Shown piece by piece: positions 4,183 through 56,578 of a stretch of 64,000 bases of DNA. Numbering within the stretch: the stretch's first letter is position 1; the number at the start of each line of letters is the position of its first letter. This stretch comes from Escherichia coli. GTDB taxonomy: Bacteria > Pseudomonadota > Gammaproteobacteria > Enterobacterales > Enterobacteriaceae. The stretch is from the NCBI RefSeq assembly GCF_003334335.1, contig NZ_QOWQ01000004.1; one strand, written 5' to 3'. The notes beneath the pieces were generated by a model. That model was not told the origin of the DNA. It ran no database searches and worked only from the letters and a program-made list of their open reading frames with translations. The position numbers and the translations under genes are program-made.

Positions 4183-4275
4183 AAGGAGCCTCAAATCCCT
4201 TCGCCGGCGTTATCCGGATCAGGTTCGACGGGTATTTTCTCAGCGCACGCGTACGCGTGGCACCCCGTTGAGAAC
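4183..4275 (-). promoter_or_regulatory. TPP (THI-box) riboswitch in thiBPQ leader
   Basis: On minus strand: GGGGTGCCACGCG...CTGAGAAAATACCCGTCGAACCTGATCCGGATAACGCCGGCGAAGGGA, matching conserved TPP aptamer elements (CUGAGA, ACCUGAUC, GGAUAAUGCC-like, GAAGGGA); boundaries approximate. Confidence 0.75.
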
Positions 4276-29431: not shown

Positions 29432-31820
<2,389 letters not shown>

Positions 31821-36203: not shown

Positions 36204-36884
<681 letters not shown>

Positions 36885-50218: not shown

Positions 50219-50710
50219 GAAACCTCGTGCGGTGGTTGTTTTTTTGATCTACGCAGTGATGCGTGTGTAAGTTTGCAATTCCGTTTGTTGTATTAATTTG
50301 TTTACATCAAAGAAGTTTGAATTGTTACAAAAAGACTTCCGTCAGATCAAGAATAATGGTATGCGGCAGCGAATGCACCCGCTTTATGCATGGTTGAAGA
50401 TGAGTTGCTTAAAAAGAAACCGTTTGTAAAGCTCAGCCTCAACCCCTCTCAATATGTAGAATGAATTTAAATTCGTTTTAATTGAATTAAAAATCACAAA
50501 ATTGGTAAGTGAATCGGTTCAATTCGGATTTTTATAGTTTAATAATCGTTAAAAAACTCCTTTCCTACGTAAAGTCTACATTTGTGCATAGTTACAACTT
50601 TGAAACGTTATATATGTCAAGTTGTTAAAATGTGCACAGTTTCATGATTTCAATCAAAACCTGTATGGACATAAGGTGAATACTTTGTTACTTTAGCGTC
50701 ACAGACATGA

Positions 50711-55310: not shown

Positions 55311-56254
55311 AATCTGAATTTGCTGAAAACGACGCTTATGTTCACGCGACTCCGCTGATCCGCCGTCTGGCACGCGAGTTTGGTGTTAACCTTGCGAAAG
55401 TGAAGGGCACTGGCCGTAAAGGTCGTATCCTGCGCGAAGACGTTCAGGCTTACGTGAAAGAAGCTATCAAACGTGCAGAAGCAGCTCCGGCAGCGACTGG
55501 CGGTGGTATCCCTGGCATGCTGCCGTGGCCGAAGGTGGACTTCAGCAAGTTTGGTGAAATCGAAGAAGTGGAACTGGGCCGCATCCAGAAAATCTCTGGT
55601 GCGAACCTGAGCCGTAACTGGGTAATGATCCCGCATGTTACTCACTTCGACAAAACCGATATCACCGAGTTGGAAGCGTTCCGTAAACAGCAGAACGAAG
55701 AAGCGGCGAAACGTAAGCTGGATGTGAAGATCACCCCGGTTGTCTTCATCATGAAAGCCGTTGCTGCAGCTCTTGAGCAGATGCCTCGCTTCAATAGTTC
55801 GCTGTCGGAAGACGGTCAGCGTCTGACCCTGAAGAAATACATCAACATCGGTGTGGCGGTGGATACCCCGAACGGTCTGGTTGTTCCGGTATTCAAAGAC
55901 GTCAACAAGAAAGGCATCATCGAGCTGTCTCGCGAGCTGATGACTATTTCTAAGAAAGCGCGTGACGGTAAGCTGACTGCGGGCGAAATGCAGGGCGGTT
56001 GCTTCACCATCTCCAGCATCGGCGGCCTGGGTACTACCCACTTCGCGCCGATTGTGAACGCGCCGGAAGTGGCTATCCTCGGCGTTTCCAAGTCCGCGAT
56101 GGAGCCGGTGTGGAATGGTAAAGAGTTCGTGCCGCGTCTGATGCTGCCGATTTCTCTCTCCTTCGACCACCGCGTGATCGACGGTGCTGATGGTGCCCGT
56201 TTCATTACCATCATTAACAACACGCTGTCTGACATTCGCCGTCTGGTGATGTAA
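54362..56254 (+). CDS. aceF: pyruvate dehydrogenase E2 dihydrolipoyllysine acetyltransferase
   Basis: 630-aa ORF; three lipoyl domains ([11 protein letters not shown] x3) with Ala/Pro-rich linkers, E3-binding and catalytic domains. Confidence 0.97.
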
Positions 56255-56261
56255 GTAAAAG

Positions 56262-56287
56262 AGCCGGCCCAACGGCCGGCTTTTTTC
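56262..56287 (+). terminator. intrinsic terminator after aceF
   Basis: GCCGGCCCAACGGCCGGC hairpin followed by TTTTTT. Confidence 0.6.
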
Positions 56288-56578
56288 TGGTAATCTCATG
56301 AATGTATTGAGGTTATTAGCGAATAGACAAATCGGTTGCCGTTTGTTGTTTAAAAATTGTTAACAATTTTGTAAAATACCGACGGATAGAACGACCCGGT
56401 GGTGGTTAGGGTATTACTTCACATACCCTATGGATTTCTGGGTGCAGCAAGGTAGCAAGCGCCAGAATCCCCAGGAGCTTACATAAGTAAGTGACTGGGG
56501 TGAGGGCGTGAAGCTAACGCCGCTGCGGCCTGAAAGACGACGGGTATGACCGCCGGAGATAAATATATAGAGGTCATG

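Follow-up and report, generated by a model that had tools for sequence, protein, structure and literature searches.

The perfect 18-bp palindrome at the Escherichia coli lpd promoter is the central part of a known ArcA operator

The perfect 18-bp palindrome found upstream of lpd in Escherichia coli is the central part of an ArcA operator that had already been mapped at this gene. It is, in that sense, a known and ordinary element. We consider it very probable that the palindrome marks the middle of the binding site for phosphorylated ArcA (ArcA-P) at the internal lpd promoter, and that its symmetry is a by-product of the repeats that ArcA-P recognizes. What the palindrome signals at lpd is hence a direct-repeat operator and not a dyad operator. 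Publications describe the operator from 1998 onward, and a genome-wide map of 2013 includes it. The product of lpd is common to the pyruvate and 2-oxoglutarate dehydrogenase complexes, and the operator explains how lpd is shut down under anoxia independently of the pdhR promoter.

We analyzed a stretch of 64,000 nucleotides (the 64-kb window; position 1 is its first letter). The palindrome, AAAATTGTTAACAATTTT, occupies positions 56353-56370. It consists of two 9-nt arms, AAAATTGTT and AACAATTTT, that are perfect inverted repeats with a 0-nt spacer, and it has no strand of its own. In the window it reads in the context ...GTTTGTTGTTTAAAAATTGTTAACAATTTTGTAAAATACCGACGG..., where its extension is blocked by A at 56352 facing G at 56371. 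The spacer between aceF and lpd is 324 bp long (from the end of the aceF open reading frame at 56254 to the start of lpd at 56579), limits with which the RefSeq annotation of an identical E. coli sequence is consistent, and it is 100% identical in E. coli K-12, BL21 and many other strains. The lpd ATG lies 209 bp beyond the end of the palindrome. The preliminary description had reported a perfect inverted repeat at this place in a 324-bp spacer, about 210 bp upstream of the lpd start; its coordinates, sequence and distance are all confirmed.

Perhaps a perfect palindrome of this length is remarkable in itself? It is the only perfect even palindrome of at least 18 bp in the 64-kb window. However, windows simulated with a first-order Markov model contained on average 0.29 such palindromes per 64 kb, and at least one was present in 51 of 200 simulations. 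Because the simulated windows average 0.29, we judge the palindrome unremarkable: as a palindrome, it is within chance expectation. The lesson for scans of this kind is that a perfect 18-bp palindrome arises by chance in about one of every four 64-kb windows. The window also has the long perfect palindromes CCAAAGTTAACTTTGG (16 bp, 36535-36550), AGCAGAAATTTCTGCT (16 bp, 31292-31307) and CACGCGTACGCGTG (14 bp, 4246-4259), and the numbers of these remaining ones (16, 16 and 14 bp) likewise match the expectation from the Markov simulation.

Besides being reached by read-through from pdhR-aceEF, lpd is known to have a regulated promoter of its own; this had been stated in the preliminary description and is supported by the literature. 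The published transcription start site lies 195 nt upstream of the ATG (PMC2759082), at position 56384 on the + strand (MG1655 coordinate 127717), which gives a 195-nt 5' leader (56384-56578, +) ahead of the lpd (lpdA) coding sequence, the regulated gene (56579-58003, +). Relative to this start, the palindrome occupies -31 to -14, and the earlier placing of the element in the lpd promoter region thus holds. A consensus scan found a -10 hexamer, TAAAAT, at 56372-56377 (+; -12 to -7 of the published start) and, 17 bp upstream of it, a predicted -35 hexamer, TTTAAA, at 56349-56354 (+). The palindrome falls between these elements, overlaps the predicted -35 hexamer in part and ends just before the -10 hexamer. 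At the upstream end of the spacer, an inverted repeat and direct reading of the sequence identify the aceF intrinsic terminator, a GC-rich hairpin followed by a T run (56257-56287, +). Though this terminator is evident on the + strand, the consensus scan called it on the - strand only; its flanking A and T runs give it a bidirectional look.

ArcA binding has been mapped to exactly this place. Adding 71333 to a window coordinate gives the MG1655 coordinate, an offset that we verified at three published ArcA boxes (lpdA, acnB and pdhR). Park et al. (2013, PMC3798270) saw ArcA ChIP-seq peaks in each of two replicates, at 127646 and 127683; for lpdA they list an 18-bp ArcA box, ttgtttaaaaattgttaa, of 21 bits, and three repeats at 127682, 127693 and 127705 scoring 9.4, 11.7 and 10.7 bits. 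They assigned the site to the top strand at -38 to -6 relative to the transcription start, with the third repeat 12 bp from the second instead of the canonical 11 bp (PMC3798270). In the same work, lpdA expression was 6.1-fold higher in an arcA mutant, and sigma-70 occupancy at lpdA was reduced without oxygen (Park et al. 2013, PMC3798270). An earlier footprint of ArcA at lpd is credited there to Cunningham et al. 1998, whose limits for the site we take second-hand from PMC3798270. In Salmonella, too, aceEF-lpdA expression is higher in an arcA mutant. In vivo occupancy, ArcA-dependent expression and the transcription start have therefore all been shown by publication. Our literature searches found no mutational test of the lpd ArcA operator and no ChIP-exo data on lpdA.

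Mapped onto the window, the ChIP-seq peaks place ArcA in vivo at the palindrome, and the ArcA-P operator is the 33-bp sequence TTGTTTAAAAATTGTTAACAATTTTGTAAAATA at 56346-56378 (+; MG1655 127679-127711; -38 to -6), which contains both the -35 and the -10 hexamers. The start site at 56384 is consistent with this published placing. The three published direct repeats, scored here on a 7-nt repeat matrix, are DR1, TTGTTTAAAA (56346-56355, +; 7.1 bits); DR2, TTGTTAACAA (56357-56366, +; 10.8 bits, on both strands); and DR3, TTGTAAAATA (56369-56378, +; 8.9 bits), which begins 12 bp from DR2 and overlaps the -10 hexamer. The preliminary description had offered ArcA as a candidate and had held that the binding factor could not be assigned. 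The candidate was well chosen, since ArcA is the documented factor at this coordinate; the reservation falls, since the assignment was in print in 1998 and 2013.

A weight matrix independent of the lpdA site singles out the same position. Its training set was 114 published ArcA boxes other than that of lpdA, and with it we scanned both strands of the 64-kb window, a scan that the preliminary description had proposed. The best match in the window, at 22.2 bits, was at 56346-56363 (+). This score is higher than that of every one of the 114 training sites (maximum, 21.9 bits; median, 16.2 bits), and none of 150 simulated windows reached it: their best scores averaged 15.0 bits and never exceeded 20.6 bits. 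Hence the ArcA match at lpd, unlike the palindrome itself, is beyond chance. It has the TGTTAA-like direct repeats at 11-bp spacing, at least two in number, that define an ArcA box. The scan also recovered the published acnB box (60129-60146, 17.6 bits) and the published pdhR box (50535-50552, 16.6 bits) among its top matches. An additional match of 13.8 bits was seen near the pdhR promoter, at 50674-50691.

How does a direct-repeat site come to look like a palindrome? The palindrome is there because the middle repeat, DR2, carries TTGTTAA on both strands. Its variant, GTTAAC, is self-complementary and makes up the center of the palindrome, and it is a common variant of the repeat, present in the first repeat of 9 of the training boxes listed. 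The two T residues preceding GTTAAC would mirror the C-A-A following it by coincidence, and the A/T-rich linkers, AAAA and TTTT, would then fill out the arms. The symmetry accordingly looks incidental. The model that we favor runs as follows. Under anaerobic or microaerobic conditions, phosphorylated ArcA would bind the three direct repeats at 56346-56378 (-38 to -6) and lie over both promoter hexamers and the spacer between them. Sigma-70 RNA polymerase would be kept off the lpd promoter by the bound ArcA-P, and lpd would therefore be repressed along with the 2-oxoglutarate dehydrogenase genes. Where an ArcA site overlaps a promoter, occlusion has been the published reading (Park et al. 2013), and we infer that this is the mode of repression at the lpd promoter specifically.

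If the symmetry were itself the functional feature, it should be visible in the pattern of conservation. Within E. coli there is little variation to read: of 5426 complete genomes, 5425 carry one copy of an 82-bp promoter stretch, and in 5145 of these the identity is 99% or more. (One of the 5426 genomes gave no match to the promoter stretch, and three matches were on plasmid-labelled records.) For a wider comparison we used a single Lpd scan of species-representative genomes, which yielded 80 loci, all from Enterobacterales; 79 had enough upstream sequence, representing 63 distinct sequences. Across the 79 loci the right arm and the -10 element were near-invariant, with a variable left arm, as were TTAAC and TGTAAA (TTAACA was exact in 57 of the 63 distinct sequences, and TGTAAA also in 57), and variation fell at low-information positions of the repeats.

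The two arms did not behave as equal half-sites. Against E. coli, the right arm has a mean identity of 0.92 and the left arm one of 0.77. All nine palindrome pairs were kept in 16 of the 63 distinct sequences and eight of nine in 12, while 32 kept five or fewer, a group that includes Erwinia, Pantoea, Yersinia and Serratia; the dyad is not conserved outside Enterobacteriaceae-type sequences. Every change that we read in the Enterobacteriaceae-type sequences listed hits one arm only, giving AACGAT (in Kosakonia and Pectobacterium), AACATT, AAAAAT or AAATTT. The position flanking the palindrome is likewise instructive. Most Enterobacteriaceae carry C at the equivalent of 56352, which extends the dyad to a perfect 20-bp palindrome, CAAAATTGTTAACAATTTTG, in 19 of the 79 loci; E. 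coli and Kluyvera carry A, with which DR1 scores 7.1 instead of 5.8 bits and the 20-bp palindrome is broken. Judged from the aligned sequences, this pattern of variation is in keeping with selection for the promoter and for the ArcA repeats, and not for symmetry. Some of the conservation of the TTAAC-to-TGTAAA block arises because the -10 hexamer falls inside it, and what keeps the right arm conserved could be promoter function instead of ArcA binding. Like the matrix match, the pattern itself is shown directly by our data. The idea in the preliminary description of a palindromic operator with two inverted half-sites is not supported by these results: ArcA-P uses direct repeats, the site exceeds the palindrome on both sides, and the dyad is unconserved beyond Enterobacteriaceae-type sequences.

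The distribution of promoter types among genera does not track family boundaries. Rahnella and Ewingella (Yersiniaceae) and Pectobacterium have the Enterobacteriaceae-type lpd promoter with the palindrome (loci L042, L056 and L058), and Serratia, Yersinia, Rouxiella and Erwiniaceae have a different upstream half of the promoter (compare L034, L047 and L070).

We wondered whether the dyad might matter to ArcA itself. Because it makes the bottom strand a strong box of 20.2 bits, the orientation of ArcA-P is not settled by sequence. This bottom-strand, ArcA-box-like reading, ATTTTACAAAATTGTTAA (56360-56377, -), is the second-best match in the window, and it is the portion conserved across the order. 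ArcA-P might then use the bottom-strand box (TTGTTAA plus ATTTTAC), or either orientation, with the center of the palindrome under selection, and ArcA sites are indeed found in both orientations relative to promoters. The orthologs lend this some weight: the bottom-strand box reaches at least 14 bits in 59 of the 63 distinct Enterobacterales sequences, the top-strand DR1-plus-DR2 box in only 29, and the near-invariant TTAAC and TGTAAA belong to the conserved block. However, the -10 hexamer inside that block accounts for part of its conservation, and the literature assigns the site to the top strand, where E. coli has three good repeats (7.1, 10.8 and 8.9 bits) as against one good and two weak ones on the bottom strand (4.9, 10.8 and 4.2 to 6.1 bits). 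We regard a functional dyad for ArcA as unlikely. A related and equally doubtful scenario is that the operator grew by strand switching around a palindromic half-site, its self-complementary GTTAAC core allowing it to be read from both strands. The half invariant across the order, a bottom-strand box, TTAACAATTyTGTAAAmT, that covers the -10 hexamer, would be the older element, to which the top-strand DR1-DR2 pair and the 18- to 20-bp palindrome would have been added in the lineage with Enterobacteriaceae-type sequences. This scenario is drawn from the Enterobacterales loci alone, which do not fix the direction of change, and the patchy distribution bears on it, with Pectobacterium, Rahnella and Ewingella being Enterobacteriaceae-type and Erwiniaceae not.

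Might another protein bind the palindrome beside ArcA? Candidates for a second dimeric regulator are Fis and the GntR-family relatives of PdhR, LldR or UxuR, whose operators have AATTG...CAATT arms. The AATTGTT and AACAATT arms do resemble the PdhR operator, AATTGGTaagACCAATT, the palindrome is perfect over 20 bp (CAAAATTGTTAACAATTTTG) in those 19 of 79 loci, and the degenerate Fis consensus fits 56348-56362 with 1 mismatch. However, binding of PdhR to the lpd promoter is reported to be absent in E. coli and Plesiomonas alike, and the PdhR consensus fits the palindrome with 5/12 mismatches and the wrong spacing. Other dyad consensus sequences fared no better: FNR had 3/10 mismatches, Fur 8/19 and TyrR 3/12, and CRP had no match on the palindrome. 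Fnr, IHF and FIS had been named as candidates for scanning in the preliminary description; scanned as consensus sequences, Fnr and IHF matched poorly, and the single-mismatch fit of FIS is weak evidence, its consensus being very degenerate. We have set aside FNR, CRP, IHF, PdhR, Fur and TyrR as binders for their poor consensus matches. The left arm, moreover, is unconserved beyond Enterobacteriaceae-type sequences and its changes are one-sided, and literature searches returned no report of another factor at the lpd palindrome. A second dimeric regulator thus seems very improbable. Less credible still, to the point that we give it almost no weight, is an action of the palindrome through structure, whether by a DNA cruciform at the promoter or by a hairpin in the pdhR-aceEF read-through RNA. 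The 9+9 bases are perfectly complementary, and the stretch is transcribed within the read-through mRNA; but the arms are short and nearly all A-T, the RNA fold reaches only -5.9 kcal/mol (z-score -0.59; 55 of 200 shuffles fold equally well or better), and no compensatory changes were seen among the orthologs, where changes are one-sided. A scan of the aceF-lpd spacer against Rfam gave only sub-threshold chance matches and none at gathering score. The hairpin reading was dropped for the weakness of its fold.

The leader downstream of the operator contains a segment, at 56402-56549 (+), that is not part of the ArcA operator. This segment is an ERIC/IRU repeat and matches the ERIC2 primer with 1 mismatch and the ERIC1R primer with 2. 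Consistent with this, it is present in several copies per genome (a median of 5 matching places per E. coli genome versus 1 for the promoter part). Of the 5426 complete E. coli genomes, 3433 matched the full spacer, and the others matched its first 148 nt only. In strain 2013C-3264, the one short-spacer strain that we aligned, about 31 unrelated bases replace 56402-56549 and the spacer is 207 bp. We conclude that the ERIC/IRU repeat in the lpd leader is polymorphic in E. coli. Because of this repeat, the 195-nt leader folds as a long hairpin of -81.8 kcal/mol (z-score -5.26). ERIC-like elements were also seen in the lpd leaders of E. albertii, Entomohabitans, Enterobacter, Raoultella, Serratia, Pectobacterium betavasculorum, Erwinia persicina and Yersinia pekkanenii (loci L004, L020, L021, L024, L034, L039, L043, L064, L065, L073 and L075). 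Close relatives of the species that bear them lack such elements, which suggests repeated gain or loss of ERIC at this place. Searching the literature for this repeat in the lpd leader gave no relevant papers.

The ArcA-P operator at lpd is best compared with those of icdA and acs, which also have three direct repeats (Park et al. 2013; Park and Kiley 2014). Like them, the lpd site has 10-bp TGTTAA-type repeats about one helical turn apart, overlaps sigma-70 promoter elements, represses a gene of aerobic carbon oxidation and appears in the same published tables. Unlike them, it has its third repeat at 12 bp and not 11 bp, all three of its repeats are strong (9.4 to 11.7 bits), and its middle repeat is self-complementary, which places an ArcA box on both strands. 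The PdhR operator of the pdhR promoter, a GntR/FadR-type dyad, resembles the lpd palindrome in being an A/T-rich dyad with AATTG...CAATT arms that overlaps a promoter of the same operon; the lpd palindrome differs from it in lacking the GG/CC pairs and the 3-bp spacer and in 5 of 12 consensus positions. PhoB and OmpR boxes belong to the same response-regulator family: they too are tandem direct repeats bound by a phosphorylated dimer in head-to-tail fashion, the arrangement on which ArcA-P, like PhoB, has been modelled, and they too form multi-repeat arrays. Unlike these boxes, the lpd operator has a different repeat sequence, and it represses by covering the promoter, as we read it, instead of activating from the -35 region.
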